In this document: positions 4,877-61,431 of the stretch, in pieces
How positions within the stretch are numbered: the first letter of the stretch is position 1
How the letters are laid out: every line of letters starts with the position of its first letter
Source of the DNA: Candidatus Woesearchaeota archaeon
GTDB taxonomy: Archaea > Nanobdellota > Nanobdellia > Woesearchaeales > WAPJ01
Direction: 5' to 3'
NCBI GenBank assembly: GCA_047602765.1
Contig: JBLKOL010000002.1
Coordinates: 10,597 to 74,596, forward strand
Length of the DNA stretch: 64,000 nucleotides
Notes under the pieces: generated by a model
The model's database searches: none
What the model was told of the DNA's origin: nothing
Seen by the model: only the letters and a program-made list of their open reading frames with translations
Translations under genes and position numbers: made by a program

Positions 4877-7800
4877 TCACGACGAGAAAACAGAATATTT
4901 TCGTCCCGCAAAAAGGACAAACATAACGAGTGCGAGTGATGCGATGAGGAGCACGAGCGACACCGGCTCGTCTTCGATCGGTCGCGGTTCTTCGGGCAAC
5001 GGCAGATCAACGAGCGGCATGTCAACGACAGCTCCAATCCGTTCTTCGGCGACCCCTATGACGAACACACTCAGTCCCGGTGCAACAGCCACATAATAGT
5101 AGAACCCCTCCGAAAACCGAACCATCTCAGTTTCAAGCAACTCCCAGCCAGTAGCGAACCTATACAGGCCTATAGCATCAGGATGTACTCCTTCGGTTTC
5201 GATCCACACAGCGGGAACCCTGAAAGAGAATTCGACCTCGCCCGCTTCTTCAACACGGATTTCGGCGATCTCATACGTGCGACCACGGAACGGTTCGACG
5301 TGTTCAGGCACCTGTGCGAGTTCTCGGATCTCGATACGCGGTTCGATACGCGGAGTGGACAATCGCGCTTCGATACGCTCGAATGATCCGGCGCGCTCAA
5401 CGCTCACGACGTCGACCGGTTCGGATTCGGGTTCTCGATCGGGTTCGTGCGGTTCGCTCGTCGTCGCCATGCCACCGCCACCTCCTCCACCCCCACCGCT
5501 CGGAGCACCACCCGTGCTCGGCTGCGTGATTTCGATGGTGAATTCGTTGCTCTCTACCGTCACACCATCGCGTTCTGCTACGATCCGTGCGGTTCCGCTT
5601 CCCGAATACGCGCTTGGAGCGTTCAGCGTTGCGCTCGAGCCGCTGATGGTCATCGTGACGGGAAGAGTCGTGTTGAGCGAGAACGAAACATCGTTCGCAG
5701 TGGTGAAGTACGAGAGAAGATCGATCGTCCGACTCGACCCTTGATTCCATGTTTGAGCAGGGATGGTGCTCGTGGTTTCGAGCGGTACGGGTTCGGGCGA
5801 TACGATGATATCCCACGCGACGTCTGTTTCCGCAAGGCTGTTGGTTGCGCTCAGTACGAGCGTTCCGCTCTCAAACGCGTTGAAGAGGAATTCGCTCTGT
5901 GATCCCGTGGTCGGGAAGGGTCCGATGAGGTGTCCTGCTTGGGAGACTTTGTCGAGCCATACGTCGTATTCGTCTTCTTCGGCGCTGCACGGCACAGGGT
6001 CTGATCCGAAGAGCGCCGTGTTATCGGTCCATGAGGTTGCGTCAGGAGTCCACCAGTTGTTTCGAACGGTTGGCGTGCTCATCCATCCGATCGCGTTCCC
6101 GCGTCCGCTGTTGTTCTCGAAGTCTGCGCTTGCGTGCAGGTTCCAGATGTATGCTCCGACGTTCTGCGAGTCGACGAACACCAGGTCTCCTTCGGGGTTC
6201 GTCACGTATCCGCATGAGATGATCGTGTTGTTCTCGATGCGGTTGTGTGCTCCTGCGCTGATCGCGATGCCATAGTTGCTCGTCGATACGACGTGATTGT
6301 TGTATGCGTGGAGGTATCGGTTCTCGCTCGTTCCGTCTCCGAGCATGATCCCACCACCCGAGTACGATCCGTGTTCGGGGTCGAGCGGGTAGGCTCCTTG
6401 GAAGTAGTTGTCGTGTATCCGGATCGGATCACCTGTTCTTCCCGAGGTTCGGTAGAGGCTGACGATGTCTTCGACGAAGCTCTCGTACGGCTCGTTGATG
6501 ACCTGGTTCCATGCGACTCGGGTGTTCGTCATGTTCCTGCTCTGGTCGAATTGGACGAATTGGACGTAGTGGACTCCTGAGAACCCTCCACTCCCATCGG
6601 ATATGCGTCCGTCGATGTTGCGCACCGTGTTCTTGAGGATCTGTACGGTTCCTCCGTGGGTTGAAGGGTGCATGTGCAGGTAGACTCCGCTCGTGTTCTC
6701 GAGGTGTGAGTGTTCGAGGAGCAGGTACGTGTAGCTGTCGAGGGCGATGAACCGCCCAGGGTACCTTCCTGCCTGTTCGGGTCTCACGCCGATGCCTTCG
6801 ACGTTTCGTACCGTTACGTTAGCGACGTATTCCGGTGGCGAGTAGATGTGGGTTGCGACGCTTCTCGTTCTCGAGTTCTCGATGGTTACGGGCTCGCTTG
6901 TTGCGATCGTTACGGCAGCAACGTCCGGGTCGGTGCTCTCCCACGATCCGCTGTAGGTTCCTCTTTCGGTGATCGTGATCGGCGAATCATAGGATTGTGC
7001 GCTCGTGGTCGTGAACGTCCAGTCGAACGTGACGGTTCGTCCTTTGACGTCGCTCGCGTTCGCACTGAACGTGCGTGTTTCGTTGTGTTCGAGTTCGATC
7101 GTTCCCGGCTGTGGATGTGCTTGGACGATCGGCCCCACAGCTTCTATGGTGAGGTCCCACGATTCTGTTACGTTCGAATCCTGGTTGGCGACTACCACGC
7201 GCACCTCGTAGAGAGCAGGGTCGAGGTCCATGCCATCGATCGTGACGTTCGACTCGTTCCCGAGCGGTGTTCCGTTGAGCGTCCACGTATAGTTGAGTCC
7301 TTCTTCGTACGGGTCGAAGGCTTCGACGGAGAAGGTGATCGTTTCGTTCTCGAGGACCGATACGCCACCATCTTCTTGGCTGCGGCTCGTGATGAAGGGT
7401 GAGGGGTCGATGATCGTGATCGTATATTCCTGTTCAGCAGATCCGTGTGTCTCAGTCTCATCGTGTCTGACCCGAACCGAGTACGAACCGGGTGCCATGA
7501 ATGCTTCGGTGTGGTTGATCGTCGTATTCGAGGCGTTGATGAACACGTCGTCGATGAAGAGTTCTATGATGGATCCGCTCGTCAGGTTCGCATGGATCGT
7601 TGCGTTGACAACTCCCACGTGTGTCAGGTTCGAAGCGTTGCCGTTGATCGTAACGTCGAATAAGGATTCGTATCGAGCGTGGAACGTTTCGGTGACGTGC
7701 GATTCTGTGCCGCTCGTCGTGTTCGCATATACTGTGATCGTGTACATGCCTGCGGTGAGGTTCTCGACCGTGAGGGTTCCTGTCGGTTCGCTGCGGATGA

Positions 7801-9193
7801 TCGTCTCGTTCGGTGTCGTAAGGTTCACTCGTGTCGTATCGAGTTCTCCTCCTGTTGTGATGCTCCACTCGAACGTCCAATCGGAATCGGGTTCGGGCGT
7901 GCTATCATACTCGAGGAGTATGGCTGGCGAGAACGTATCGAACGCTGATACGAGTCCGAATGCGTCGATCCGATGGTACGTTGTATCCGAGGCGCTGTCG
8001 TAGACGGGTACACCGGTTGCGATGAGTGTGTAGAGCGCTTCTGCAGGCGTCACGCTCAGATTCTGCCAACGCACGTATTCGTCGAGAAGCGCAAGGGCTC
8101 CGGATACGTGCGGTGTTGCCATGCTCGTTCCCGACTTGCTCTGTATGCCGCCGGGCACGGTCGAGCTGATAAGCACGCCGGGAGCGAGGATGATGTCGTC
8201 GAATGTTGCTGCGCGATTCGTGAATGCTGTGATCGCGTCGTTCGAGAGCGTTGCGCCTACGCGCATCGAATTGCTCGCGCACGCAGGGAATGAGATGCTC
8301 GAGTTCGAACCGGTGTTTCCCGTCGCTGATACAACGCTGATGTTCTGAGCGACCGCATCATTGATCGTGGCGACCCATGAAGACACCCATCCATCACATG
8401 GGCTCATGAACCGCTGTCCGGTTCCAAGACTCATACTGATGACTGAGATGTTGTACTCGTCTTTGTACGTCGTACACCATTCGACGCCGTGCATCGCGTC
8501 CGAGATGAAGCCATCGCCGTTCTCATCGAGGGATTTGATCGCGATGATCTTCGCTCCGGGAGCCACTCCCGTGACGGATCCGTTCGCGGCGATGATGCCG
8601 GCGACGTGGGTTCCGTGACCCTCATCATCCCACGGGTCATCGTCATCGTTGACGAAGTCGTATCCTCCGATGACTTTACTACACTCGCCTGCGAGGAACT
8701 CGGCGCTCGTACATCCTCCGAGCGACGGATGCGTATAGTCGACGCCGCTGTCGATCACGCACACCGTGCTTCCGGCTCCCGAGAGGGTGACGCCCTCAAA
8801 ACCCAGATCCCATACGGCGCTCGTGTTGATGATCTCGCGACTCGTCGAGAGCATGGTGCTCACGCGTACATCTTCGAAGATGCTCTCGATCCCAGGGTCC
8901 TTGCTGAGCTGTTCGAGCTGCGAGCGGGTGACCATCCGTGCTTCGAACCGCGACGCGAAAGCGCGAGGAAGCCGCTCACTCATGATTCGCATTCCTCGAT
9001 CACGTGCGTTTTCGCGGTACGTGATGACGACGCGTACCTCGTCTTCTGCTTCGAGGGTTTCGACGAGTGCTGGATCCACAGAAGCTACGAGTCCGGTCGG
9101 CTCTGGCTCGGAGTAGTAGACGAGCACGGCGGCTCCTGCGATGAGGAGAAGCAACGCGACGCGCACACCCCGATTTACGACTGACGAGCCCAT
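4877..9193 (-). CDS. Secreted S8 subtilisin-like serine protease with I9 propeptide, Ig/PKD-like repeats, a right-handed beta-helix (pectate-lyase/CASH-like) region, a Gly9 linker and a C-terminal transmembrane anchor.
   Basis: N-terminal signal peptide. Catalytic triad motifs VIDSGVD, HGTHVAG and GTSMATPHVSG. Beta-helix-like NxxxxS/T-rich repeats. C-terminal LVLLIASLALVMFVLFAGRKY transmembrane segment. Confidence 0.85.
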   Translation of the reverse strand: MGSSVVNRGVRVALLLLIAGAAVLVYYSEPEPTGLVASVDPALVETLEAEDEVRVVITYRENARDRGMRIMSERLPRAFASRFEARMVTRSQLEQLSKDPGIESIFEDVRVSTMLSTSREIINTSAVWDLGFEGVTLSGAGSTVCVIDSGVDYTHPSLGGCTSAEFLAGECSKVIGGYDFVNDDDDPWDDEGHGTHVAGIIAANGSVTGVAPGAKIIAIKSLDENGDGFISDAMHGVEWCTTYKDEYNISVISMSLGTGQRFMSPCDGWVSSWVATINDAVAQNISVVSATGNTGSNSSISFPACASNSMRVGATLSNDAITAFTNRAATFDDIILAPGVLISSTVPGGIQSKSGTSMATPHVSGALALLDEYVRWQNLSVTPAEALYTLIATGVPVYDSASDTTYHRIDAFGLVSAFDTFSPAILLEYDSTPEPDSDWTFEWSITTGGELDTTRVNLTTPNETIIRSEPTGTLTVENLTAGMYTITVYANTTSGTESHVTETFHARYESLFDVTINGNASNLTHVGVVNATIHANLTSGSIIELFIDDVFINASNTTINHTEAFMAPGSYSVRVRHDETETHGSAEQEYTITIIDPSPFITSRSQEDGGVSVLENETITFSVEAFDPYEEGLNYTWTLNGTPLGNESNVTIDGMDLDPALYEVRVVVANQDSNVTESWDLTIEAVGPIVQAHPQPGTIELEHNETRTFSANASDVKGRTVTFDWTFTTTSAQSYDSPITITERGTYSGSWESTDPDVAAVTIATSEPVTIENSRTRSVATHIYSPPEYVANVTVRNVEGIGVRPEQAGRYPGRFIALDSYTYLLLEHSHLENTSGVYLHMHPSTHGGTVQILKNTVRNIDGRISDGSGGFSGVHYVQFVQFDQSRNMTNTRVAWNQVINEPYESFVEDIVSLYRTSGRTGDPIRIHDNYFQGAYPLDPEHGSYSGGGIMLGDGTSENRYLHAYNNHVVSTSNYGIAISAGAHNRIENNTIISCGYVTNPEGDLVFVDSQNVGAYIWNLHASADFENNSGRGNAIGWMSTPTVRNNWWTPDATSWTDNTALFGSDPVPCSAEEDEYDVWLDKVSQAGHLIGPFPTTGSQSEFLFNAFESGTLVLSATNSLAETDVAWDIIVSPEPVPLETTSTIPAQTWNQGSSRTIDLLSYFTTANDVSFSLNTTLPVTMTISGSSATLNAPSAYSGSGTARIVAERDGVTVESNEFTIEITQPSTGGAPSGGGGGGGGGMATTSEPHEPDREPESEPVDVVSVERAGSFERIEARLSTPRIEPRIEIRELAQVPEHVEPFRGRTYEIAEIRVEEAGEVEFSFRVPAVWIETEGVHPDAIGLYRFATGWELLETEMVRFSEGFYYYVAVAPGLSVFVIGVAEERIGAVVDMPLVDLPLPEEPRPIEDEPVSLVLLIASLALVMFVLFAGRKYSVFSS

Positions 9194-9407
9194 ACGGTTC
9201 TAGAGCACGCTCAGGTTATAACGTTTGGGTATCATCCGCAGAGCTTCTTGCGCATCCATGGACCGTGGTATCAGTGAACCGATCGATCCTTAGACAGCGG
9301 TGTCTGTAGATCGCTGCATCCATACCACTCGCTCGCAGCGACACGCTACGACCACGCACAGATGCTCAACGGCTCGTTAAGAACTCATACGCACGCTTCT
9401 TATAGGA

Positions 9408-11765
9408 GTGGTATGCTCAAAGCCTATGGTACGCGCATTCCTCGGTGAAGCGAACTCGAAGCGCTTCTCGTACGAACTCTCTAAACTCACACGGCATGCG
9501 GCGATCCTCGGGACGACGGGTTCGGGCAAGACGGTGATGGGCAAAGTCCTCATCGAAGAAGCCCTCGCCTCGGGCGTTCCGGTGATCGCCATCGATCCGA
9601 AGGGTGATCTCGGCTCGCTCGGGGTGGTGCATAAGGACTTCGACTTCCGTCCGTACGGCAAGCTCACTACGTCTCGCGCGCTCAAAGTGCGCGACCACTA
9701 CCGCCAAGCGAACATCCCATCAGGACTTGTGGATTCGCTCACGAAGGTTACGACGACGGTCTACACGCCAAAATCACAAGTGGGGCGTGCGGTGAATCTC
9801 ACGCCTGATCTCTCAGCGCCCAAGCGGTTCGCCCATCTCTCAGCGTCCAATCCGATCGCAGCCGCAGGATTCGTCGAGCCGATCGCCGCTTCGCTCCTCT
9901 CCCTTGCAGGGATCAGCGGGTCGCTCGAAGAACGTGCCGAGTCGTTCATCGCAGCGCTCATACTCCATTCGTGGAATGAGGGTCGTGATCTTGACATCCC
10001 TGCGCTCATCGCACACGTCAAGGATCCGATGATCGATGGTATCGGATCGCTGAGCGTCGGAGAAGTCGTATCGGATAAGGAGCGTACGCGTATCGCAGCT
10101 CAGCTCAATACGATCATCTCGTCTCCGGCCAAGCGCGCGTGGTCGCTCGGTGATCCGCTCGATATGGAGTCGATGCTCTCGAAAAAGACGCTTTCGGTCT
10201 TCGATCTTCGCTGGGCGACGAGCCAGTCTGATAAGCAGTACGTCGCTGAGCGTATCATGAGTGAATTGTATCGCGCACTGCTCAGCCGTGGAGGCTCTTC
10301 GAGGCTGCGTTACGTGCTCTATATCGATGAACTCGCAGGACTTCTCCCACCACCGCCGGCGAGCCCGCCGTCCAAGCGAGCCCTCGAACTCCTCGTACGA
10401 CAGGCGCGGGCCTTCGGTCTTGGTATCGTCGTAGCGACGCAGAACCCTGGTGATATCGATTCGCGTCTCTTCGGTAATATCGGAACGCGTTTCATCGGAC
10501 GCCTGCGTACGAGCATGGATATCGAGAAGGTTGCGATCGCCATGGACCTTCCTCCTTCACAGTTGCGCGAAGAGGTCTCGGCCTTGACGGCCGGAGGGTT
10601 CGTCGTGAACGATGCCGTCGACAATCGCATGAGCGTCTTACGCTGCCGTTGGCTCGCCTCGTTCCACGAAGGTCCGCTCAGCGAACGCGAGGTCGGATGG
10701 GTGAACGATGGTGCACCGGCACCGGCAGAGCCGCTTCCCAAGCCTTCACGGTCCGCTGCGGCTTCGAAGGATGCGAAGACGTCCGCGAAGGGTGCGAAGG
10801 GCCGGACGACAAGGGGCACGAACAAGAGCGGAGCAGGGAAAGCGGAGCCTTCGCGTATCGCCGGTAAGAACATCGTACGCGATGCGAAACGCGCGAAACA
10901 CACGACGGTTTCTCGTACGCAGCACCTTGCGCCTTCGGTGGACAAGCAGATCAAGAATCTGATCGGACTCGTCAAGAAGCATGCTGATGACGTACAGCTC
11001 AAGGTCGAGATATCCGAGCGACCTGCGCAGTCGTATACGCCACACCTGCGTCTTGTCGTAGCGCCCAAGCCGCTGCGCGGACTCGAGCTTCCGATCCAAG
11101 GACCGTTCGTCTTCGATATGACGAGTCGTCTCATCCCGATCGGAAACTACCTGAAGGGCAAGACGTTCTCAACGTACGTTCCATCCGATATCTCGATCGA
11201 GAAGCACGCGCGTTCGGTGATGAAGGCCGTAACCTATGCGCGTCACGAGGCGAAACGCGAACTCGCAGGTACGTTCTACGAGTCCAAGCTCACCGCCTTC
11301 GCATCACCATCACGTTCGGAGGTCGAGGATATGAACCACCGCTTCCTCTCTGAGGAGCTCACGCCGTTCTTGCGTCAGATCGATGCGAAGGCCCGGCGTG
11401 ATATCGACGATCTCAAGGCGCGTATCTCAGCCCTTCGGACCAAGCGTTCGAGCCTCAACCGCGAGCATACGATCCACCGCGCTCGTCGAGCCATGAGGCG
11501 CGTGCTCACCGATCAGAAGCTCAAGAAGCGTACGGCACAGATGCAAGAGCGCGAACGACGCATGGCGATGATCGACAAGGAGATCGCACAGCTCAAAAAA
11601 CGCATCGAAACAGTCAAAGAGCGCGCATCAGAGCAGAAGGAACGCCGCAAGGCACGCGTGTACGAGAAGGCGCACTCACAGGTACGCTCGATCCGCTATC
11701 GTCCGACGAACGACGATCTGCGCATCCACGCACAGGTGTTGCTCGTACGCAGCCGCGGACGATAA
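9408..11765 (+). CDS. HerA-like / DUF853 (YjgR)-family P-loop ATPase with a ~340-aa Lys/Arg-rich coiled-coil C-terminal extension.
   Basis: Walker A AILGTTGSGKTV followed by VPVIAIDPKGD. Walker B VLYIDELAG. VVATQNPGDIDSRLFGNIGTRFIGRL motif. GTG at 9408 or ATG at 9426 as start. Confidence 0.75.
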   Translation: MVCSKPMVRAFLGEANSKRFSYELSKLTRHAAILGTTGSGKTVMGKVLIEEALASGVPVIAIDPKGDLGSLGVVHKDFDFRPYGKLTTSRALKVRDHYRQANIPSGLVDSLTKVTTTVYTPKSQVGRAVNLTPDLSAPKRFAHLSASNPIAAAGFVEPIAASLLSLAGISGSLEERAESFIAALILHSWNEGRDLDIPALIAHVKDPMIDGIGSLSVGEVVSDKERTRIAAQLNTIISSPAKRAWSLGDPLDMESMLSKKTLSVFDLRWATSQSDKQYVAERIMSELYRALLSRGGSSRLRYVLYIDELAGLLPPPPASPPSKRALELLVRQARAFGLGIVVATQNPGDIDSRLFGNIGTRFIGRLRTSMDIEKVAIAMDLPPSQLREEVSALTAGGFVVNDAVDNRMSVLRCRWLASFHEGPLSEREVGWVNDGAPAPAEPLPKPSRSAAASKDAKTSAKGAKGRTTRGTNKSGAGKAEPSRIAGKNIVRDAKRAKHTTVSRTQHLAPSVDKQIKNLIGLVKKHADDVQLKVEISERPAQSYTPHLRLVVAPKPLRGLELPIQGPFVFDMTSRLIPIGNYLKGKTFSTYVPSDISIEKHARSVMKAVTYARHEAKRELAGTFYESKLTAFASPSRSEVEDMNHRFLSEELTPFLRQIDAKARRDIDDLKARISALRTKRSSLNREHTIHRARRAMRRVLTDQKLKKRTAQMQERERRMAMIDKEIAQLKKRIETVKERASEQKERRKARVYEKAHSQVRSIRYRPTNDDLRIHAQVLLVRSRGR

Positions 11766-29920: not shown

Positions 29921-30895
29921 ATGGAACTGAGCCGCGAAGCGCTCGATGGGATCTGGTCGTCGTACGGTCGAGGAGCCATCATCTCGTTCGAAAAGGCACG
30001 TATGGGAGTGGCGAACCACAATTGGATGATCACCACGTCCGAAGGCCGGTTCGTGCTGCGGTGCGTGAACACCGACAAATCCGAATGCGATCTCACCGCA
30101 GAGTTCGATTTCATCAGAACGCTCGAACAAGCCGGCTTTCCCTATGAGATGCCCACGCCGCTCACAGCCGGAGACGGCTCGCGCATCATCGAGCACGAGG
30201 GCAGGAGGTGTTGGAGCTATCCGTACCTTCAAGGCTCTACGATCACAAGTCCCGTCACGCGTTCACAGGCACAGCAGATGGGCGTGATGATCGCACAGAT
30301 GCACGCGATCATTGTATCGTCCGATCTCAAAGAGCGCATCGGCAACCCGACGTTCTCGATCGATCATGTGATCGCTCATGCACGAGAACTGCTCGATGAA
30401 CGCGCTGACGAAACACGAACCAGTTACTATGCGAGAACGCTCCCGGTGTTTCTCGACATCATCGAACGTACACCGTATCCGCAGCTCAACACCTACCCGA
30501 TCCACCGCGACATCAATCCGGAGAACGTCCTCTTCGAGGGTGATACGCTCACTGCGGTGATCGATTTCGATAATGTGAGCGTCTGCGACGAGCCGCTCGT
30601 CAAGGATCTTTCGAACGCGCTTCTCTACTCGTGCACACACGATCGCCGCGCATTCGATTTCGAGCGGTGTGCGGACATCGTGCGATCCTATCGTTCGATC
30701 CGGAATCTCTCACGAGCCGAGATCCAAGCCGTTCCGGATCTCATCGTCCTCGGCTGCTTGGAGGACTTCGCCTACGAGTACTGGCTCGCCATCCACGAAC
30801 CCGAGCGTACGGCTCCTCACAAGCTCGAGAAGCGTTTCGCGATGGGCCGCTGGGTGTTCGAACACCGTGATGAGCTCATCCGTGCGATCATGTGA
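29921..30895 (+). CDS. Phosphotransferase (APH/choline-kinase-like) family protein.
   Basis: Catalytic IHRDINPENVLF and VIDFDNVSVCDEPLVKDLSNAL motifs. Confidence 0.8.
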   Translation: MELSREALDGIWSSYGRGAIISFEKARMGVANHNWMITTSEGRFVLRCVNTDKSECDLTAEFDFIRTLEQAGFPYEMPTPLTAGDGSRIIEHEGRRCWSYPYLQGSTITSPVTRSQAQQMGVMIAQMHAIIVSSDLKERIGNPTFSIDHVIAHARELLDERADETRTSYYARTLPVFLDIIERTPYPQLNTYPIHRDINPENVLFEGDTLTAVIDFDNVSVCDEPLVKDLSNALLYSCTHDRRAFDFERCADIVRSYRSIRNLSRAEIQAVPDLIVLGCLEDFAYEYWLAIHEPERTAPHKLEKRFAMGRWVFEHRDELIRAIM

Positions 30896-30916
30896 AACCG
30901 TACGGCACATCGATTA

Positions 30917-31393
30917 CTATGGTCGTCGTAGGTAGAGGTGTTGTCCGGGGATGCTGTTGCAGATATCGATCGCTTCGAATCCGAATCGTTCGTACGCTCC
31001 GATACCGTCCGGTGTGGGGCTTGCGAGCAGGTGTGCGTCTGAGAGCGATTCGATGAGCGAGCGCAGATGTCCTCGTTTGCGGTCGAAGGATTCGACGAGT
31101 TAGAGGTGGAGGAACGGTTCGCCTCCAGTGATGTCTGCGAGCGTTCCGGTATAGTCGTCACCGTTCGCATCGACGAGCCATAGTCCGAGCACGGAGCCTC
31201 GTTGTACGAGGTCAGATGCGGTGTATGCTGAGATGATGGCGATTGAGCGCGGGCGGTGGAGCGGTCCGCTGATCGCTGCGAACCTGCTCGGAGACGGATC
31301 GTCCACCTCACGTACGAGGTCCGTCGGCGTTCTGCGCTTCGCGTAGTCCGTGACCTTCGCGTAGTCCGGGCTCGTCGAGTCGATGAAGCGCAT
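30917..31393 (-). pseudogene. GNAT-family acetyltransferase interrupted by an in-frame TAA (at 31100-31102).
   Basis: …TGGEPFLHL-TAA-LVESFDRKRGHLRSL…GIGAYERFGFEAIDI… is continuous in one frame (verified codon by codon). GNAT motif A/B-like segments lie on either side of the stop. Confidence 0.55.
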
Positions 31394-31549
31394 GCACTGT
31401 GGTGCGATGAGCGATTCAAAAACGAGAGGGATGAAGAAAGGAGAGGGCCGACCGAAGTCGGCGCCCCACACGCTGGCTCCCATACGAACAGTTGGGGGTG
31501 GTTGGAATGAGAGCCAAGAAAAACCGTTTGGAGAGGGGGATACGGATCC

Positions 31550-32620
31550 TCAGTTGAGGATCTCGATGCCGAGCTCGTCGCTCAACTCCTGGCGCCGGGA
31601 TTCGACGCGCTCGCGCACGTCTTCCTTGCCCAGGATCCACGGGCTCTTGACACCGGTGATGATCGTCATCACGGTGACCTTGCCTTTCATGTCGTCGGTG
31701 ATGCGTGCGCCCCAGATGACGTTCGCATCTTCGTCGAGCTGTTCGGTGACGAGGTCTCCGACCTTGCTCACTTCTTCGAGCGTGAGGTCGTTTCCTCCGT
31801 GCACGTGGATGAGCGCTCCGGTGGCTCCCGCGTAGTCGACGTCGAGGAGCGGATTCGAGAGCGCTCCGTGGACGGATTCTTGGACGCGGTTGGCGGTGTC
31901 CGAGCTTCCGACGCCGATGATGGCGACGCCTCCGTTCGTCATGATCGCCTTCACATCAGCGAAGTCGAGGTTGACGAGGCTGGGCACCGCGATCGTTTCG
32001 ACGATTCCTTTGATCATCGTGGCGATGAGCTCGTTGGCGACGGCGAACGCCTGTTCGATCGGCAGGTTGCCGGCGATCTGTACGAGGCGGTTGTTGTCGA
32101 TGACGATGACCGTGTCGGATACCTGGCGCAGCTGTTGGAGTCCGAATTCGGCTTTGTCGACGCGTGCGCGTTCGATCTTGAACGGCATCGTGACGGTTCC
32201 GATGACGATGGCTCCCATCTCTTTGGCGACTTTGGCGACGATCGGAGCCGATCCGGTTCCGGTTCCGCCACCCATGCCTGCACATGCGAAGACCATGTCG
32301 GCGCCTTTGAGCGATTCGCGGATCTCGGTGAGCGCTTCTTTGGCAGCTTCTGCTCCCTTCTCGGGGAAGCCTCCTGCTCCGAGTCCTCGTGTGACGTCGC
32401 GGCCGATGAGGAACTTCTTGTCCGCTTCGGTGATGTTGAGGTGCTGCTGGTCGGTGTTTGCCGCGATGATCTCTGCACCGCGGATGCCCTTTTTGAAGAG
32501 CCAGGAAACCATGTTGTTTCCTGCACCGCCGCAACCGATGACCTTGATGTTGGCCTGTCCGACGTCGAGTTGTTCTGTGTCTTGGCTCGTTTGAGCTGCC
32601 TTTTGTACGATGAAGTCCAT
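31550..32620 (-). CDS. ftsZ: Cell division GTPase FtsZ.
   Basis: GCGGAGNNM tubulin signature, GGGTGTG T7 loop region. GGGGGA Shine-Dalgarno sequence 9 nt upstream of ATG 32620. Confidence 0.9.
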   Translation of the reverse strand: MDFIVQKAAQTSQDTEQLDVGQANIKVIGCGGAGNNMVSWLFKKGIRGAEIIAANTDQQHLNITEADKKFLIGRDVTRGLGAGGFPEKGAEAAKEALTEIRESLKGADMVFACAGMGGGTGTGSAPIVAKVAKEMGAIVIGTVTMPFKIERARVDKAEFGLQQLRQVSDTVIVIDNNRLVQIAGNLPIEQAFAVANELIATMIKGIVETIAVPSLVNLDFADVKAIMTNGGVAIIGVGSSDTANRVQESVHGALSNPLLDVDYAGATGALIHVHGGNDLTLEEVSKVGDLVTEQLDEDANVIWGARITDDMKGKVTVMTIITGVKSPWILGKEDVRERVESRRQELSDELGIEILN

Positions 32621-33039
32621 TTGTGGTATCCCCCTTGGGTCTTGTTTTCTCTTGCGAGCGTTCGGAGCCAGGCTCCGCTGGTCTACCACGAGAATCTAAC
32701 CGATAACCCTTTTCGACGTGCGATTCATCTCGCCCGTCGCCCCTTTTCCCTTTGGAACGATTCCATGAACGGACAATATATAAAAATATCGCTCTTGGAA
32801 CGATGAAACCGGCGTGGTGTTTACGTTGCCTGCGCATCGCTCATGATTTGTGCGCGTCGATCCTTTAGCACCGTGAAATGAACTCACGATCGGATCCGAA
32901 TAAGGTCTTCAGCGCAATCCAGCGAAGATCGCAAATCCACGCGTCCTCGAGTTCAACACCCAATACAAACACCACAAAACACTCACATTACCACTTTTAA
33001 GTAGCTAAAATAAGTAAGATTTAAGTATGTACACTCCAC

Positions 33040-33237
33040 ATGTTCGAAATCATGTCAGAACTATCAGATAAAATACTCGGGTGGACGATGAGCGCCGTAG
33101 GTGCCGGAGGACTGATTTCGGCGATCGGACTCGTCGCACACAACCCCGAGAACATGCTCGGATACACCGGCGCGATCGCCGGAGCGGGCTGTTTGGGATA
33201 CGGTATCGACTATCTCAAGAAGGCATATTCGAAGTGA
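33040..33237 (+). CDS. Small Gly-zipper membrane protein (65 aa).
   Basis: GxxxG-rich hydrophobic ORF in the AT-richer island. Confidence 0.45.
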   Translation: MFEIMSELSDKILGWTMSAVGAGGLISAIGLVAHNPENMLGYTGAIAGAGCLGYGIDYLKKAYSK

Positions 33238-33369
33238 GGCCGAACGATCAAACCGAGAGATGAACGAGCGTTTAGGCCACACAAGAGAGCGTAATCGAAC
33301 ACAGCGAACAGTTCATCACGGCCAACCCCGAAGACCGAGCATTTAAGTCGAGCATTACCCCCCAACGGT

Positions 33370-33696
33370 ATGACACAGAACGATTCTTTGAACGAAGTCC
33401 AACCGATCGACGGATACGTGCAAGACCTCTTGCGGACCGCTCAAGCGACGTACGGGCTCGACATAGACCTTGACCGTCCGACTCGAGGTCAGCGGCTCGA
33501 AGCCGCACTTGCGATGCAGGATGAAGCACATGGGTTCTATTCGATGGAACTCATGGTTGGAAGACGCGTGGATTCAAGCGAACCGCTCGCAGGAACGTTC
33601 GCCATGCTCAAGATGCTCGACTCAACCTCCGACGTACGAGGGTTCTATAGTGGTTTTGCGCACCACTATTGGCCCAACGATGATCGAGCGCGCTGA
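33370..33696 (+). CDS. Hypothetical protein (108 aa).
   Basis: Clean ORF. No family recognised. Confidence 0.4.
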   Translation: MTQNDSLNEVQPIDGYVQDLLRTAQATYGLDIDLDRPTRGQRLEAALAMQDEAHGFYSMELMVGRRVDSSEPLAGTFAMLKMLDSTSDVRGFYSGFAHHYWPNDDRAR

Positions 33697-33735
33697 ATCG
33701 TCGAGACCAACCACCTATTAATAGATGTAGAGCTC

Positions 33736-33850
33736 TCACGCACCATGACCCTCACTCTCATAGGCCTCGGACTCGATCCGAACGATCTCCCGATACGCGC
33801 ACACGATGGCATCGCAGCGTCGGAGGTCGTGCTCGTCGAGACGTACGCCT
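33736..33850 (+). repeat. Direct repeat copy 1 (dphB 5' end and ~10 bp upstream).
   Basis: Aligned by eye to 34863..34980. Confidence 0.6.
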
Positions 33851-33942
33851 CGCGGCCGACCGGAAAAAGTGCGAAGGCACCGCTTCCGACATATCAAGCC
33901 CATACCAACGACCACACCCAACGTAACACCACTAAACAATAG
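33745..33942 (+). pseudogene. Truncated duplicate of the diphthine synthase 5' end (first ~34 codons), then unrelated sequence.
   Basis: MTLTLIGLGLDPNDLPIRAHDGIAASEVVLVETY matches MTLTLIGLGLDPNDLSIRARDAIAASDVVLLETY of the intact gene at 34875. The nucleotide repeat is ~85% identical over ~115 bp. Confidence 0.5.
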
Positions 33943-33989
33943 TAACAAATCACAACATTTATCTATGTGAAGAACAAGGTACATGTGAG

Positions 33990-34724
33990 GTGCTACCAAT
34001 GTCATCACAGGAATCTTTGGAAAGAAACGAGCTTGAAGATGCGATCCGCACGGCGCTCATCAACAGGACAGCACACGAGTACAGCCGCACAATGAGTAAC
34101 CCAGATCTCCAGAACGGATTCGAAGAACACCTCTACAAGGCAGCGGCAGCAAGAACAGGTTCTGAAGGACTCAGATTCGGCCCCGGTAAAGACGTAGGGG
34201 ATCCTGTGATCGCACAGGTGAGCGCACGGGTACGCGAGATGTTTGCTCCCATCCGAATCAGAACGGGCGCTCTTGAGACTGCCATGAACCAGTACAGGAA
34301 CCCCGAGGAAGCGAGAGCAGAGTTCGAAAACACCTTCGCCACCCCAGAAATGGCAGGACTCGGGGAAGCGATGGAACCGCTCCTCGGATACCTTTCCCGT
34401 ACAGCGCAGGTCGTGTCAGAACTCGGAGAAATCGCCGAACGCGAGGGACTCGATACAGCCCTGGCAAGGGAGACAGAGTATCGAGTACTGCGATCGATGT
34501 TCCCTACTGCACAGGCATACGTTGCCCACGCTCTGCAACCAGTTCAAGCAGCCACGGACTATCTTGCGGCGTTCGAGGAGTTCGTAACCCTCACCGCCCC
34601 GTCGGAAGCAGACAGGGAAGAAGTCGTAGAAAGCATCTCAGTTCAACGAGTTCTCATGGAATGGGCACAGCCATACATTGAACGTATGCTTGAAGAGAAG
34701 GCGTCCGCGATCTACAACGCATGA
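33990..34724 (+). CDS. Hypothetical 244-aa protein encoded between the direct repeats (A-ending codon bias, lower GC).
   Basis: Clean ORF. AT-rich upstream region. Codon usage (aga/aca/gga) differs from the flanking genes. Confidence 0.55.
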   Translation: MLPMSSQESLERNELEDAIRTALINRTAHEYSRTMSNPDLQNGFEEHLYKAAAARTGSEGLRFGPGKDVGDPVIAQVSARVREMFAPIRIRTGALETAMNQYRNPEEARAEFENTFATPEMAGLGEAMEPLLGYLSRTAQVVSELGEIAEREGLDTALARETEYRVLRSMFPTAQAYVAHALQPVQAATDYLAAFEEFVTLTAPSEADREEVVESISVQRVLMEWAQPYIERMLEEKASAIYNA

Positions 34725-34862
34725 ACCACGAAGCACCCATCATGACTTTCACGGAAAGCAGAAAACCGTTTCGTTTCCTCAAGTCATGCGAACCACACCC
34801 CGCTCAAATTCGATACGAGAACCTCGCCGAAGCGCGCCAGCAGAATCTAAAACCCCACCCAC

Positions 34863-34980
34863 TCACCGCACTTCATGACCCTCACCCTTATCGGACTCGG
34901 ACTCGATCCGAACGATCTCTCGATCCGTGCTCGTGATGCCATCGCAGCGTCGGACGTCGTGCTCCTCGAGACGTACACGT
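34863..34980 (+). repeat. Direct repeat copy 2 (native dphB 5' end).
   Basis: See copy 1. Confidence 0.6.
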
Positions 34981-35717
34981 CATACGCTGCGATATCGATG
35001 GAGGAGCTCGTATCCATCGTCGATACCGAGATCACGCCGCTCACGCGCCAGATGGTCGAACACAATGATATCGTCCTCGAAAGGGCTCGCACGCAGCGCA
35101 CAGCGCTCCTCGTCTTCGGCGACCCGCTCGCCGCGACGACTCACCTCGAGCTCGTGTTGCGCGCGCGTGCTGAGGGGATCGGGACGAATATTATCCATGC
35201 GCCGTCGATCTTCTCGGCCATCGGTGAATCAGGTCTTGAGCTCTACCGCTTCGGTCTCACCGCGTCGCTCGTCTATCCGCGTCGCAACTGGCTTCCTGAG
35301 CGAGCGCGGGATGTCATCGCGCTCAACCGTTCGATCAAGGCGCACTCGCTCGTACTCCTCGACATCATCACCGGCGATGAGGAGCTCGCGCTCCTCGACC
35401 GCGACCACGAGGCGTTCGCAGGGCTCGATCGTTCGCGAATCGAACACGAAGCCGTGAGCCTTGCAGGGGAGCCTCAGTTGCTCATGAGTCCGAACGAGGC
35501 GATCGCGCTCCTCGTATTCCAGAAGGTCGTCGAACCTTCTGACCCTCTTATCGTCTGCTCGCGTCTCGGAACCGGCTCCGGAATTGTCTCTCGGGGATCG
35601 GTAGGTGAGCTTCTGGCTCGCTCGTTCGGCCTCGGTCCGCATGCGATCGTGATTCCTGGCGAGCTGCACTTCCTCGAATCCGAGCCTTCGTCTGCGAACG
35701 GGAGCGAATCCTCTTAA
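34875..35717 (+). CDS. dphB: Diphthine synthase (tetrapyrrole-methylase fold).
   Basis: N-terminal MTLTLIGLGLDPNDLSIRARDAIAASDVVLLETYTS. Length and motifs typical of archaeal Dph5. Confidence 0.85.
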   Translation: MTLTLIGLGLDPNDLSIRARDAIAASDVVLLETYTSYAAISMEELVSIVDTEITPLTRQMVEHNDIVLERARTQRTALLVFGDPLAATTHLELVLRARAEGIGTNIIHAPSIFSAIGESGLELYRFGLTASLVYPRRNWLPERARDVIALNRSIKAHSLVLLDIITGDEELALLDRDHEAFAGLDRSRIEHEAVSLAGEPQLLMSPNEAIALLVFQKVVEPSDPLIVCSRLGTGSGIVSRGSVGELLARSFGLGPHAIVIPGELHFLESEPSSANGSESS

Positions 35718-35799
35718 ACGACAGGTCCACCCGAATCGTGGCCCGGCACGAGAGTACCGTGGGGAGCGTACGGCATCGTCCAAGCGATGAACCTCGGGG

Positions 35800-36474
35800 T
35801 TAGTGTCCCGGGCCACATCCAATATCTGCGTCTGAGAGTTTGCAGCGCTTCGGTGCCAGGTCCGATAATCGGTCGTAGAGGTTATGGTGGTCCCCGTAGA
35901 CGCGGTCGAGTCCTGCCACGTGTACGACATGTACGCCAGGGTTCTCGTGGATCACTGCTCGCAGGATCCGTTCTGCGTGTTCGTCTCGTTCTCTGTAGAA
36001 GGTTACGAGTTCGGGGCTGTCTGCGACAGGGTAGGATTCTTGAGCGTATTCTTGTGCGATCTGAGCACGTGCTTTTTCTAATGGGAGACTGAGGAACTGT
36101 TCGAGTTCTGGGTTGAGTAGATACGGGTTGGGGGTGCCCTGTGTGATCCATCGGTCCGTGGAGTCCTCGTCGTCTGCGAAGATGATCGGTACCTCCCAGG
36201 TGTTCCGATACGCTTCGATAGCTTCAGGTACTGCGTGCAGGTTCTCGAACCACCTCATGAACGTGTCATGGTTGAGACTCGGATTGTGCTGTGCGATGCA
36301 GTCCCATTCTTCTCTGACGAGCGTTACGAGTGCTCCGTGGATTGGCCGATCGTATTCGTATCGAGTCTCGACATCTTCAACGCTGATGATGTCCGGTTTG
36401 AGCCGGTTCAGGAGCGTTCGCAGTCTCGTGTGAGCATCGACGTCGAAATGGGACTCCCCTACGAAAGATAACAT
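35800..36474 (-). CDS. TraB/GumN-family protein.
   Basis: GESHFD…KPDIISVE N-terminal pattern and C-terminal VHVVHVAGLDRV, as in the TraB/PrgY family. ATG 36474 chosen; the track start is further upstream. Confidence 0.55.
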   Translation of the reverse strand: MLSFVGESHFDVDAHTRLRTLLNRLKPDIISVEDVETRYEYDRPIHGALVTLVREEWDCIAQHNPSLNHDTFMRWFENLHAVPEAIEAYRNTWEVPIIFADDEDSTDRWITQGTPNPYLLNPELEQFLSLPLEKARAQIAQEYAQESYPVADSPELVTFYRERDEHAERILRAVIHENPGVHVVHVAGLDRVYGDHHNLYDRLSDLAPKRCKLSDADIGCGPGH

Positions 36475-36786
36475 GATACTACTACAAAGTAGCCATTTAT
36501 CTGCCTTTCGTTCGTGTCGCGACGCCATACGACGAAACCCTTCGTCGAGCACCCGTCGGAGCCGACTGAACTCGGCTTAACAATCTTTTTAAGGCACTAG
36601 CGTATAGCCGTACTACGAACGAAAGGGAGTGGTGCAAGCGCTGCCTTGATGACATTCAACCAATCACAACCGCGATGAGCGGCTTTCAGCAACCCATTCA
36701 TCACTCACCAGTCACTGGCGGTCACCCGCCCGTGTCGTCTGTGGCGATCACGTTCTGAGAGCCCTCACGAGAAGGAGGGACCCCAA

Positions 36787-38016
36787 ATGGGCAAAATCAG
36801 TCCAGTATCAGCAAAATACATTATCCACGCACACATCGCCATCGAAGGCGTCGTCGACCGTCCTGATGTCATCGGAGCCGTATTCGGCCAGACCGAGGGA
36901 CTTATCGGTTCTGAACTCGAATTGCGCGAACTCCAACGATCAGGTCGTATCGGTCGCATCGAGGTCATCCTCGATACGAAGAACGGCAAGACGCAAGGGT
37001 CGATCACGATTCCCTCGAGCCTCGACAAGGCTGAGACGTCGATCATCGGAGCGTCGCTCGAGATCATCGAACGTATCGGCCCGTGCAACGCGTCGGTCCA
37101 GGTCAAGAAGATCGAGGACGTGCGCATCAGCAAGCGCGGAGCCGTCATCAACCGTGCCAAGGAACTCTTGCGCGACATGATGGAGAAGACGATGCCCGAC
37201 AGCCAGGAGATCGCTGACGAAGTCACCTCGGCGGTGCGCGTTATGGAGATCACCTCGTACGGCAAGGAGCGCATCCCGGCAGGTCCTGCGATCGACGAGT
37301 CCGATGAGATCATCATCGTCGAAGGACGCGCTGACGTGCTCAACCTGCTCAAGTACGGGTTCAAGAACGCGATCGCGATGAACGGTACCTCGGTGCCTCA
37401 GACGGTCAAGGACCTTGCGGCGAAGAAGACGGCTACGGTGTTCCTCGACGGAGACCGCGGAGGAGACCTCATCCTCAAAGAGCTCCTCGCAACGACCGAA
37501 CTCGACTTCGTATCACGCGCACCCGACGGAAAGGAGGTTGAGGAGCTCACCAAAAAGGAGATCCACAAGGCCCTGCGCGGTAAGATCGCCGTCGAACAGG
37601 CCAAGCTCGAGTCGGAGACGCCTCGGCCTTCGAACACCCAGAAGCGCTCGCGCAAGGAACGCCCTGAGCGCAAGCGCGAGGAACGCGAAGAGGCTCCTGC
37701 AGTTGAGGAGCTCTCTGCGGAGAACCGTGAACGTCTGCGCATCCTCGTCGAGGATCTGATCGGTACGAAGGCCGTGTTCTTCGTCAACGACAAGCTCGAC
37801 GTCCTCGGTAAGGTTCCGCTCTCAGAACTCGAATCGACACTTGCGGATCTTCCCGGAACCTACGCGATCGTCGTCGACAACACGATCGATAAGGATCTGT
37901 GCAAGACGGCTAAGAAGGCGAACGTGCGTATCGTTGCAGGAGCGGACAAGAAGACGACGAACAAGGATGAGGAAGGACTGCTCGTCTTCAGCGCCGCTGA
38001 GCTTACGGAGGCATGA
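36787..38016 (+). CDS. dnaG: Archaeal DnaG-type primase (TOPRIM domain).
   Basis: Conserved N-terminal MGKISPVSAKYIIHAHIAIEGVVDRPDVIGAVFGQTEGL and TOPRIM IIIVEGRADVLNL…DGDRGGDLI. GAAGGAGGG Shine-Dalgarno sequence upstream. Confidence 0.9.
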   Translation: MGKISPVSAKYIIHAHIAIEGVVDRPDVIGAVFGQTEGLIGSELELRELQRSGRIGRIEVILDTKNGKTQGSITIPSSLDKAETSIIGASLEIIERIGPCNASVQVKKIEDVRISKRGAVINRAKELLRDMMEKTMPDSQEIADEVTSAVRVMEITSYGKERIPAGPAIDESDEIIIVEGRADVLNLLKYGFKNAIAMNGTSVPQTVKDLAAKKTATVFLDGDRGGDLILKELLATTELDFVSRAPDGKEVEELTKKEIHKALRGKIAVEQAKLESETPRPSNTQKRSRKERPERKREEREEAPAVEELSAENRERLRILVEDLIGTKAVFFVNDKLDVLGKVPLSELESTLADLPGTYAIVVDNTIDKDLCKTAKKANVRIVAGADKKTTNKDEEGLLVFSAAELTEA

Positions 38017-60361: not shown

Positions 60362-60434
60362 GCCTCTGTAGCTCAGTGGCCAGAGCGGTTGCCTCGTAAG
60401 CAACAGGTCCGGGGTTCAACTCCCCGCAGAGGCT
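60362..60434 (+). tRNA. tRNA-Thr (anticodon CGU).
   Basis: Manual fold of 73 nt. Acceptor GCCTCTG/CAGAGGC, D-arm GCTC-AGTGGCCA-GAGC, anticodon stem GTTGC/GCAAC with loop CTCGTAA, T-arm CGGGG-TTCAACT-CCCCG. Confidence 0.85.
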
Positions 60435-60600: not shown

Positions 60601-61431
60601 ATGGCGCGCCGGAAAAAGAACTACACGACCAATCCAATAACCGGAAAGCAAGAACGGGTCCTGCGCTCAGATGAAACCCAGAATCCGTGGACCGGAAAGG
60701 TCAGTAGAAGAAGAACCGGAAAGCGTAGGCTACCAACCAAGAAAAGCGCCCGCTCGAGTAAGCAAGAAATCGACCCTGCCTTCATTCTATTCGTTCTCGT
60801 GGCAGTAGCACTAGCAATCGTGTACCAATGGGCTGTCAACAACCCAATCCTATTCTGGAGCATCATAACTTTGATTGTCGTGGGAACCGGAGTAGCGCTT
60901 TGGAAGATACCAAGCATAAGACCTAGATTCCTGAACAACGTTTTGGGATCAGCGACTTCACACCCGAAATCAGACGAGGCATCAGATCTGGAAGACCCGT
61001 ATGGGAGCATCGTACAAGCCATCAGAGAGACAGAACTCGAACCCGTACGAAACGAGGAGGACTTCGAGAAACAACTCTATCAGTGGCTCAAGGCCAAAGG
61101 ATTCAAAGTACAACGACAAGTCAATGACAGGACCCGTTCACCAGTCGATATAGTCGTAGACGGACAAGTTGCTATAGAGTTGAAGATCGCAGAGTCACTC
61201 AACAGCGTTAGGACCTTAGTCGGTCAAGTAGCTGATGACGTGGACGAATACGACAATGTCATAGGAGTAATCCTCGATGCTGGCAAACTATCAGGAGTAG
61301 AAGAGTACGCTGAGAAGATCAAGCGCGTCAACCCTGAGAAGGTCGACAGCGTAATCCTCAAAGCACCCTTGAACCGAAGGAAGCGAAAGGACAAGTACTT
61401 CCAAGTACGACAGAGCACGACGTACAAGTAA
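60601..61431 (+). CDS. Low-GC gene for a membrane-anchored PD-(D/E)xK nuclease-like protein (basic N-terminal tail, 2 transmembrane segments, restriction-endonuclease-like core).
   Basis: …EEDFEKQLYQWLKAKGF…PVDIVVDGQVAIELK… (E…D…ExK). Codon usage (gga/aca/aga/ata) and ~48% GC differ from the flanks. Directly 3' of the tRNA. Confidence 0.65.
   Translation: MARRKKNYTTNPITGKQERVLRSDETQNPWTGKVSRRRTGKRRLPTKKSARSSKQEIDPAFILFVLVAVALAIVYQWAVNNPILFWSIITLIVVGTGVALWKIPSIRPRFLNNVLGSATSHPKSDEASDLEDPYGSIVQAIRETELEPVRNEEDFEKQLYQWLKAKGFKVQRQVNDRTRSPVDIVVDGQVAIELKIAESLNSVRTLVGQVADDVDEYDNVIGVILDAGKLSGVEEYAEKIKRVNPEKVDSVILKAPLNRRKRKDKYFQVRQSTTYK

Follow-up and report, generated by a model that had tools for sequence, protein, structure and literature searches.

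The window analysed here comprises 64 000 nucleotides (nt) of contig JBLKOL010000002.1 from a Candidatus Woesearchaeota archaeon and carries, in its middle, the genes ftsZ and dphB (dph5; diphthine synthase). Between them lies an islet of lineage-specific DNA with genes for three proteins, p65a, p108 and p241, and the 5′ end of dphB is present twice, once on either side of p241. By comparison with related loci the islet was resolved into an older block and a younger unit of 1130 bp, which holds p241 and is bracketed by the repeat. It is a robust conclusion that recombination between diverged dphB alleles put this single-gene segment at the start of dphB and thereby duplicated codons 1–36.

The ftsZ–dphB interval and related loci

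The features of the locus are collected in Table 1. Eight related loci (L007–L013 and L023) were recovered through homologues of dphB and p108 and compared with the window; L010, L011 and L023 all came from one sample. Protein identities between the window and its relatives were 97–99% for FtsZ (96.6–98.7% in L007, L008, L009 and L012), 89–94% for DnaG and 63–85% for dphB. A single-protein search among the GTDB species genomes found no close relatives of dphB, and when genomes and JGI metagenomes were scanned with an alignment, only distant loci came up (28–41% identity), with no useful ftsZ–dphB context. The original prediction, made from the sequence of the window, had asked whether ftsZ lies directly next to dphB in relatives. 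This is the case in L007, L009 and L011, in which the two genes are direct divergent neighbours with ∼300–430 nt between them, and this appears to be the ancestral arrangement. Homology to the window on the ftsZ side, as judged by blastn, ends at 32856 in L009, at 32857 in L012 and at 32860 in L011 (94% identical), and in all three it picks up again at the dphB ATG. The lineage-specific DNA thus delimited spans 32861–34873, which replaces the predicted bounds of 32690–34980. Other relatives carry genes of their own in the spacer: one for an Lcl_C protein in L008, an unknown open reading frame (ORF) in L010 and one for a GNAT acetyltransferase in L012. Because each of the three has a different, unrelated gene there, the spacer is regarded as a hotspot.

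Table 1. Features of the ftsZ–dphB interval (positions in the window)
Feature	Position	Strand	Description
ftsZ	31550..32620	−	Left conserved anchor; Pfam Tubulin and FtsZ_C
ftsZ upstream region	32621..32860	.	Conserved; right edge is the end of homology with islet-free relatives
Older block (layer 1)	32861..33743	+	p65a, p108 and the canonical dphB promoter spacer
p65a	33040..33237	+	ORF; Gly-rich hydrophobic small protein of 65 residues
p108	33370..33696	+	Conserved DPANN family of ∼100–125 residues
Canonical dphB promoter spacer	33697–33743	+	TATA-like box TATTAATA at 33716–33723
Unit (layer 2)	1130 bp	+	Diverged dphB 5′ fragment, 146 nt spacer, p241, new dphB upstream region
Repeat copy 1	33744..33851	+	Truncated, diverged dphB 5′ end, codons 1–36; decaying pseudogene fragment
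Left core CATGACCCTCAC	33744..33755	+	12 nt, overlaps the start codon; putative crossover zone
Chimeric 65-residue ORF	33745..33942	+	36 dphB-like codons and a 29-codon C/A-rich tail
Unique spacer	33853..33998	+	Starts at the nonhomologous junction 33852/33853
p241	33999..34724	+	Cargo gene, 241 residues (244 if the GTG at 33990 is the start)
upB	34725..34873	+	New dphB upstream region; stands in place of the canonical promoter before functional dphB
Repeat copy 2	34874..34981	+	5′ end of functional dphB
Right core CATGACCCTCAC	34874–34885	+	Inside repeat copy 2
dphB (dph5)	34875..35717	+	Intact diphthine synthase, 280 residues; TIGR00522; Pfam TP_methylase

The decisive relative is the sister genome L023, which overall is ∼94–96% identical to the window. 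Its order is p65a, p108, 48 nt and an intact dphB of 280 residues, with no p241, no repeat and a single dphB; it aligns with positions 32674–33846 of the window (95.0%) and then straight on with 34862–35754 (93.7%). The older block is absent from L007, L009, L011 and L012. Since it is present in L023 without the 1130 bp unit, the islet consists of two nested layers and not of one element. The proposal that the whole ftsZ–dphB interval is a single degraded integrative element was therefore abandoned, as the repeat brackets only the unit, and p65a and p108 are older and shared with L023. From these alignments the block appears to predate the unit, which seems to be confined to the lineage of the window.

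Within the older block p65a is 98.5% identical in L023, the p108 gene differs from that of L023 at three of 327 nt and the 60 nt before the ATG at 33745 agree at 59 positions. The distance from the TATA-like box to the ATG is the same in the window, in L007–L010 and in L012. Neither p65a nor p108 matched an entry in Pfam, PHROG, PADLOC or NCBIfam. The protein p108, which had been described as an orphan, has homologues in 30 clusters (54–98% identity), the 98% one being that on L023. Two of its relatives (L024, 2706–3011; L025, 8001–8306) are chromosomal and lie near genes for glutaminyl-tRNA synthetase and ribosomal proteins, amid small hypothetical genes; the family is not near ftsZ or dphB there.

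In the younger unit, as predicted, the first copy of the dphB start is fused to unrelated sequence: it opens an ORF of 65 codons, the last 29 of which have no homologue in any relative compared. Against Pfam TP_methylase this chimeric ORF gave a weak match (E = 0.0029, 18 bits, below the cutoff of 27.8), and nothing above cutoff was found in Pfam, PHROGs, PADLOC or NCBIfam. Judged by position, the native dphB promoter now precedes this ORF. The unique spacer also lacks a match in any relative compared; an AT-rich box within it (TTTATCTA, 33958–33965), upstream of p241, is a candidate promoter for that gene.

A single gene, p241, lies between the repeat copies, in agreement with the original prediction. 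An exact look-up of the 244-residue form came back empty because in the public gene call the protein begins at the ATG and has 241 residues. A word-indexed search of 5.8 billion proteins returned only p241 itself and no close homologue. The protein is nevertheless not the orphan it was taken for, since a full HMMER scan found 43 remote full-length homologues (23–39% identity) in metagenome-assembled genomes (MAGs) of Nanoarchaeota; one of these has ordinary chromosomal neighbours, and this setting was found in four metagenomes. No gene of the family was found beside dphB in distant archaeal loci. No match to p241 was found in Pfam, PHROGs, PADLOC or NCBIfam, and its family profile gave no credible match among PDB sequences. 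An AlphaFold2 (AF2) model built from the family alignment consists entirely of helices at a predicted local distance difference test (pLDDT) score of 91.9 and has no match with E < 1 in PDB or BFVD. The protein defines an uncharacterised, predicted all-α DPANN/Nanoarchaeota family of ∼240 residues. Motifs of the family (P0152–P0194) are an N-terminal LExQVREALI, a central FPTxExY and a C-terminal IYG. A likeness by eye between the ORF upstream of dphB in L010 and the 3′ region of p241 was not supported by blastn or tblastx.

The unit is closed by upB, which is unrelated to the upstream region in L023 as far as −2. The stretch 34809–34874 is homologous only to the 66 nt before dphB in L013 (75% over 72 nt, E = 8 × 10−9). 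From its position, functional dphB would now be left behind p241 and upB, which would amount to a promoter swap.

The repeat and its two dphB alleles

The original prediction had put the identity of the repeated dphB 5′ ends at about 85% and had set 60% as the limit below which the repeat would be dismissed. The two copies are 86% identical over 108 ungapped nt at a spacing of 1130 nt, and the proposed blastn comparison of the window with itself gave 86.1% over 115 gapped columns (33735–33846 against 34862–34976, E = 1.5 × 10−31). Both copies open at an ATG (33745 and 34875) and homology stops abruptly after codon 36. All other direct repeats in the region 30000–38000 are 30 nt or shorter, and the 1022 nt between the copies are single-copy.

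The 12 nt core CATGACCCTCAC is identical in the left junction (attL), in the right junction (attR) and in the empty site of L023, and it has only two matches in the window; this identity is to be expected in any case, because the core is part of a conserved gene start. At attL, identity with L023 runs through ATGACCCTCAC (to +11), and from +12 onward copy 1 is ∼20% divergent. At attR the sequence is unrelated to L023 as far as −2 (CATG) and then 92.6% identical to it. The junctions are thus reciprocal chimeras, a pattern that indicates one reciprocal exchange in the core, as in a single crossover. Since the site is uninterrupted in L023, the earlier reading of the repeat as the scar of an insertion at the start of dphB was borne out.

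That one of the contigs is chimeric, be it the window or L023, was considered because all of the sequences are metagenome assemblies. The arrangement of the window was found again on 24 contigs from separate sequencing runs, so that the structure is no accident of assembly, and an identical dphB protein is present in a Candidatus Woesearchaeota MAG at NCBI. No identical stretch shared by the repeats exceeds 24 bases and the core is 12 nt long, which is too short to mislead an assembly at k = 141, and L023 differs from both copies at positions of its own. The likelihood of an artefact is practically negligible.

The two copies differ in their affinities. Copy 2 is 93.5% identical to L010, 92.6% to L023 and only 85.2% to copy 1. 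Copy 1 is 79.6–83.3% identical to L023, L010, L011 and L013 (79.6% to L023), although its left flank is ∼96% identical to L023. Synonymous divergence (dS) is 0.46 between the copies and 0.15 between copy 2 and L023; relative to L011 it is 0.33 for copy 1 and 0.59 for copy 2. At synonymous codons 4, 5, 7, 18 and 36 copy 1 has the states of L011/L013, and at codons 4, 5, 7 and 36 copy 2 has those of L023/L010; from +12 onward, L023 agrees with copy 2 wherever the sites discriminate. For reference, the intergenic spacers of the window and L023 diverge by ∼10–12%. The repeat copies are evidently different dphB alleles, and their different allelic origins mean that DNA from another lineage was involved.

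By manual count the copies differ at 16 positions, 11 of them third codon positions, and copy 1 has eight private changes, five of which are replacements (S16P, R20H, A22G, L31V and T35A). Residues L31 and T35 are invariant in the dphB family, and copy 2 keeps all of the family-invariant residues. With such replacements, copy 1 evolves free of the constraint on the enzyme. These features would also be expected if the 5′ end of dphB had been duplicated locally when p241 was inserted, by a long target duplication or replication slippage, and the upstream copy had then decayed: the copies are direct repeats, copy 1 is relaxed and carries replacements at otherwise conserved residues, and 11 third-position differences among 16 could be a mixture of constrained and neutral change. 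Such an origin is very unlikely, however, because copy 2 resembles L023 and L010 (93%) more than it resembles copy 1 (85%), because five of the copy 1 differences are L011/L013 states and not new, and because 16 differences stand against an expectation of eight or fewer if the duplication followed the split from L023. For a tandem duplication the sequence between the repeats would itself have to be duplicated, which it is not. On these allele relationships a simple local or segmental duplication was rejected; of the suggested segmental duplication carrying foreign DNA, the involvement of DNA from another lineage stands and the simple duplication does not.

The functional dphB scored 181.9 bits against the TIGR00522 dph5 equivalog (cutoff 114.3) and is 93.7% identical to that of L023. 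Recombination in this gene is pervasive. Between the window and L010 identity is 92–93% from the ATG to about codon 55 and ∼79% beyond, and L023 has the same pattern; in a sliding window the values are 93% for codons 1–48 and 57–67% for codons 205–250. The genes of L010 and L013 are 88% identical over codons 160–215, and the pairwise homoplasy index (PHI) test for recombination gave p ≤ 0.001. The gene is strongly mosaic among co-occurring Woesearchaeota lineages, which points to active homologous exchange. A breakpoint at the end of the repeat (codon 36), sought through the L010-like tract, was discarded: the tract extends to about codon 55, which leaves a crossover at the right-hand edge of the repeat unsupported. 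It was also seen that the neighbouring ftsZ and dnaG evolve far more slowly than dphB, and that the dphB product has 280 residues in the window and L023 and 274–276 in the other relatives.

Acquisition of the 1130 bp unit

The route that best accounts for these observations is a Campbell-type single crossover of a circular molecule into an L023-like ancestor, which is put forward tentatively, at a little less than an even chance. The ancestral order would have been that of L023 (ftsZ, p65a, p108, promoter, dphB). The donor would have been a small DNA molecule from a related Woesearchaeote, with p241, upB and a 5′ segment of another dphB allele (about codons 1–36) joined end to start to the sequence upstream of p241. 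As a putative circular intermediate it would have recombined once with the chromosome, in the 12 nt core overlapping the dphB start codon. One product would be the native promoter driving a truncated dphB fragment of the foreign allele and the spacer, the decaying 65-codon ORF, if this is expressed; the other would be the intact native dphB behind p241 and the imported upstream region. The joining would have been performed by host recombination, with no recombinase encoded by the element. The unit is flanked by 108 nt direct repeats, an insert-free allele exists in L023 and the repeats, as reciprocal chimeras, each change their allele type at a single point, as in an insertion-duplication; that upB also stands directly before dphB in L013 was counted in favour as well. 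The single crossover is favoured because it takes one integration event with L023 as the ancestral state, and the event would then have been an insertion in the lineage of the window and not a loss in L023.

Several points weigh against this route. Neither the circular form nor a donor genome was seen, and a circle of 1.13 kb would first have to form by end joining. The crossover falls in 12 nt of identity although an identical block of 24 nt lies deeper in the repeat, and this longer block would be the expected site of homologous recombination. The tree of alleles is weak, as it is based on only 108 nt. Once the eight private changes are set aside the copies differ at ∼8 nt, so that the source of copy 1 would have been a close relative. 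The unit could instead have been lost from L023 when one repeat recombined with the other, and import of a linear fragment explains the L010-like tract from the ATG to about codon 55 equally well or better.

Such an import, after which the unit would have been lost from the sister strain, is the closest rival; it is possible but rather unlikely. A fragment in native order (spacer, p241, upB and the dphB 5′ end to about codon 55) would have entered by homology-facilitated illegitimate recombination or template switching, with a homologous exchange near codon 55 and an illegitimate joint between recipient codon 36 and the donor spacer; a nonhomologous joint is present at 33852/33853, and the L010-like tract ends near codon 55. 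Copy 1 would then be the native relic and copy 2 imported, and L023 would later have lost the unit at the core. The donor need not be circularly permuted, and a single event covers both the insertion of p241 and upB and the L010-like tract. The flanks of the window are closest to L011 (94% left, 91% right) and copy 1 is nearer to L011 than copy 2 is, as for a native allele; its ∼8 private changes fit neutral decay if the event took place no later than the split between the window and L023. In reported cases, however, homology-facilitated illegitimate recombination usually deletes recipient DNA and does not duplicate it. A second event is required in L023, with its crossover in the 12 nt edge block and not in the longer blocks, and L023 is copy-2-like at all discriminating sites from +12. 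In addition, upB and an L010-like allele were observed together only in the window; L010 has the canonical promoter. Bacterial cases of the mechanism itself are known (PMC3240628), and it has been put forward as the origin of orphan-gene arrays (PMC5361080).

GC content in 300 nt windows falls to 0.45–0.54 across 32500–34150 (flanks 0.56–0.62), which confirms the predicted dip, but the dips fall mainly in AT-rich promoter spacers and coding composition is only mildly unusual (GC z scores of −0.8 to −1.6, GC3 z scores of −0.3 to −1.3). The reported bias of p241 towards A-ending codons is present (z = +2.0), but does not exceed what other genes of the window show. Deviations as mild as these are not diagnostic of foreign origin; the composition of the inserted DNA is close to that of the host, which was counted in favour of the single crossover.

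The original prediction had offered site-specific integration as the cause of the scar, and the unit could be the remnant or minimal form of an integrative element at the start of dphB, with CATGACCCTCAC as its att core and a recombinase encoded elsewhere or lost. For such an element speak a short core that does not differ between attL, attR and the empty site and occurs at only two places in the window, an exchange at the edge of the homology, as in crossovers set by an enzyme, the presence of upB in the corresponding place in L013, a second lineage, and the hotspot nature of the spacer. There is also a precedent in a protein gene with a diverged gene-end pseudogene, e14 in icd/icdC (PMC13626634, citing Hill et al. 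1989). The search for mobile-element functions gave a different picture. The absence of an integrase, noted in the original prediction, was confirmed: no Pfam match to an integrase, resolvase, transposase or replication gene was found in the islet ORFs and 30 further ORFs of the window (40 scanned), and the Pfam list for ∼24.9–45.7 kb of the window (±10 kb) contains no integrase, transposase or replication gene. The recommended search of the islet proteins against viral and plasmid databases found no similarity in PHROG, PADLOC, IMG/VR, phage and plasmid collections (tblastn) or BFVD. The reconstructed attP has no inverted repeat of at least 6 nt spanning the core and no dyad symmetry, and attB has one distant, imperfect inverted pair of 10 nt, which was equalled or beaten in eight of 200 shuffles. 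The unit is 1130 bp long and has one cargo gene, whose family is found in chromosomal contexts away from dphB. The diverged dphB fragment (codons 5–36) lies 3′ of the exchange, ends in the truncated ORF and restores nothing, the opposite of the design of e14 and of tRNA-integrating elements; functional dphB keeps host-type codons and the fragment of the element does not rebuild its target. The other insertions at the hotspot did not use the core, since the canonical promoter is kept there. With the homologous fragment on the wrong side, no integrase, transposase, viral or plasmid genes, and proteins that belong to chromosomal DPANN families, site-specific integration is unlikely.

It is also conceivable, at a still lower likelihood, that the unit is a minimal Woesearchaeota gene cassette without an integrase, which would insert repeatedly at the dphB start codon via the core and move between lineages (the window and L013). 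Its own upstream region would keep dphB expressed, a host or trans-acting recombinase would serve it and the p241 family would be cargo or part of its mobility; these assumptions share the same low probability. Against this background the single crossover remains the preferred route, and the event looks like an ordinary gain of a gene by recombination between relatives and not like the remnant of a virus or plasmid.

Some further features were noted around dphB and elsewhere in the window. In L007 (9557–10198) and L008 (4064–4696), the relatives most remote from the window, a gene for a protein of 210–213 residues overlaps the dphB stop codon and ends ∼10 nt into an RNA-like block; in the window dphB ends at the same point relative to this block, which suggests that in its lineage a deletion fused the 3′ end of dphB to the last codons of that gene. 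The block (35740–35820, plus strand, ∼80 nt), which occurs with a TCTTAAAC box at 35712–35719, is almost invariant in all eight related lineages and keeps its place on the dnaG side of dphB also in L007 and L008, in which other genes are inserted right after dphB. It contains a hairpin closed by GGCCCGG/CCGGGCC and followed by an invariant ACA, with an internal GAUGA; no Rfam family and no ARAGORN tRNA call was obtained for it, and it may be a candidate H/ACA-like guide small RNA. Across dphB from the islet, a second lineage-specific insertion (35821–36541) separates the block from the upstream region of dnaG; this insertion is absent from L009, L010, L011 and L013; the sequences of L012 and L023 stop before reaching this junction, and no flanking repeat was seen. 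It carries p224 (35800–36474, minus strand), whose protein has no match in Pfam, PHROG, PADLOC or NCBIfam. Further away, a HerA/FtsK/TrwB-like ATPase of 785 residues (9408–11765, plus strand) lies beside an ORF of 1438 residues (4877–9193, minus strand), and together they may form a DNA-translocation or secretion-type module (4877–11765). The only tRNA gene of the window, tRNA-Thr (60362–60434), is followed by an ORF (60601–61431) with the lowest GC content in the window (0.49), 33% A-ending codons and no Pfam match.

Comparison with known systems

The locus gives a base-pair-resolved view, before and after, of gene gain in a genome-reduced uncultured DPANN archaeon, as filled and empty sites are both available in near-identical genomes. 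A gene was gained by recombination with the DNA of a relative, in a hotspot flanked by two core genes, and no recombinase encoded by the element was found; the event would have swapped the promoter of a translation-related gene and it left a decaying relic of the gene start. Two supposed orphans were reassigned to conserved DPANN families, and one of them has a confidently predicted fold without a match in PDB or BFVD. The process is a known one; the locus is a clean and well resolved example of it in poorly known archaea, leaves current concepts unchanged and does not represent a new kind of system.

Archaeal elements of the SSV/pNOB8 type carry an integrase gene, integrate in tRNA genes and have att cores that are identical over tens of nucleotides. 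They resemble the dphB unit in that direct repeats of a gene segment bound the insert; an integrase, a tRNA target and a long identical core were all not found at the unit.

The e14 cryptic prophage in icd of E. coli is, as described in PMC13626634, an element of 15 kb with its own integrase, which supplies the 3′ end that completes icd. In that account, as at dphB, an insertion in a housekeeping protein gene lies between the functional end and a diverged partial copy, the copies differ mostly at synonymous sites and recombination restores a single chimeric gene. In contrast to e14 as described there, the dphB unit is 1.13 kb long, has no recombinase and is at the 5′ end; its fragment does not complete the gene, and the upstream region alone is replaced.

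Homology-facilitated illegitimate recombination (PMC3240628) and orphan arrays (effector-immunity genes of the type VI secretion system in Vibrio, and Rhs; PMC5361080) likewise bring in a foreign gene by a conserved anchor without an integrase. Orphan arrays share with the unit displaced partial copies and a recombination hotspot common to related strains (PMC5361080). They differ in that the anchor occupies one end and DNA of the recipient is deleted or displaced, whereas the dphB unit duplicates 108 nt, and a single reciprocal exchange accounts for the allele pattern at dphB no less well.

The favoured route has its parallel in Campbell-type insertion-duplication, in which circular DNA and a homologous chromosomal segment undergo a single crossover, as in the integration of suicide plasmids. 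The dphB event differs from it in that it took place naturally, in an uncultured DPANN archaeon, and lacks a plasmid backbone; the homology is only ∼85–93%, the exchange falls in a 12 nt block at the start codon and a circular intermediate was not observed here. In both, the insert lies between direct repeats that are reciprocal chimeras of donor and recipient, one truncated and one intact gene result, and the reverse recombination gives an empty site, which is the state of L023.

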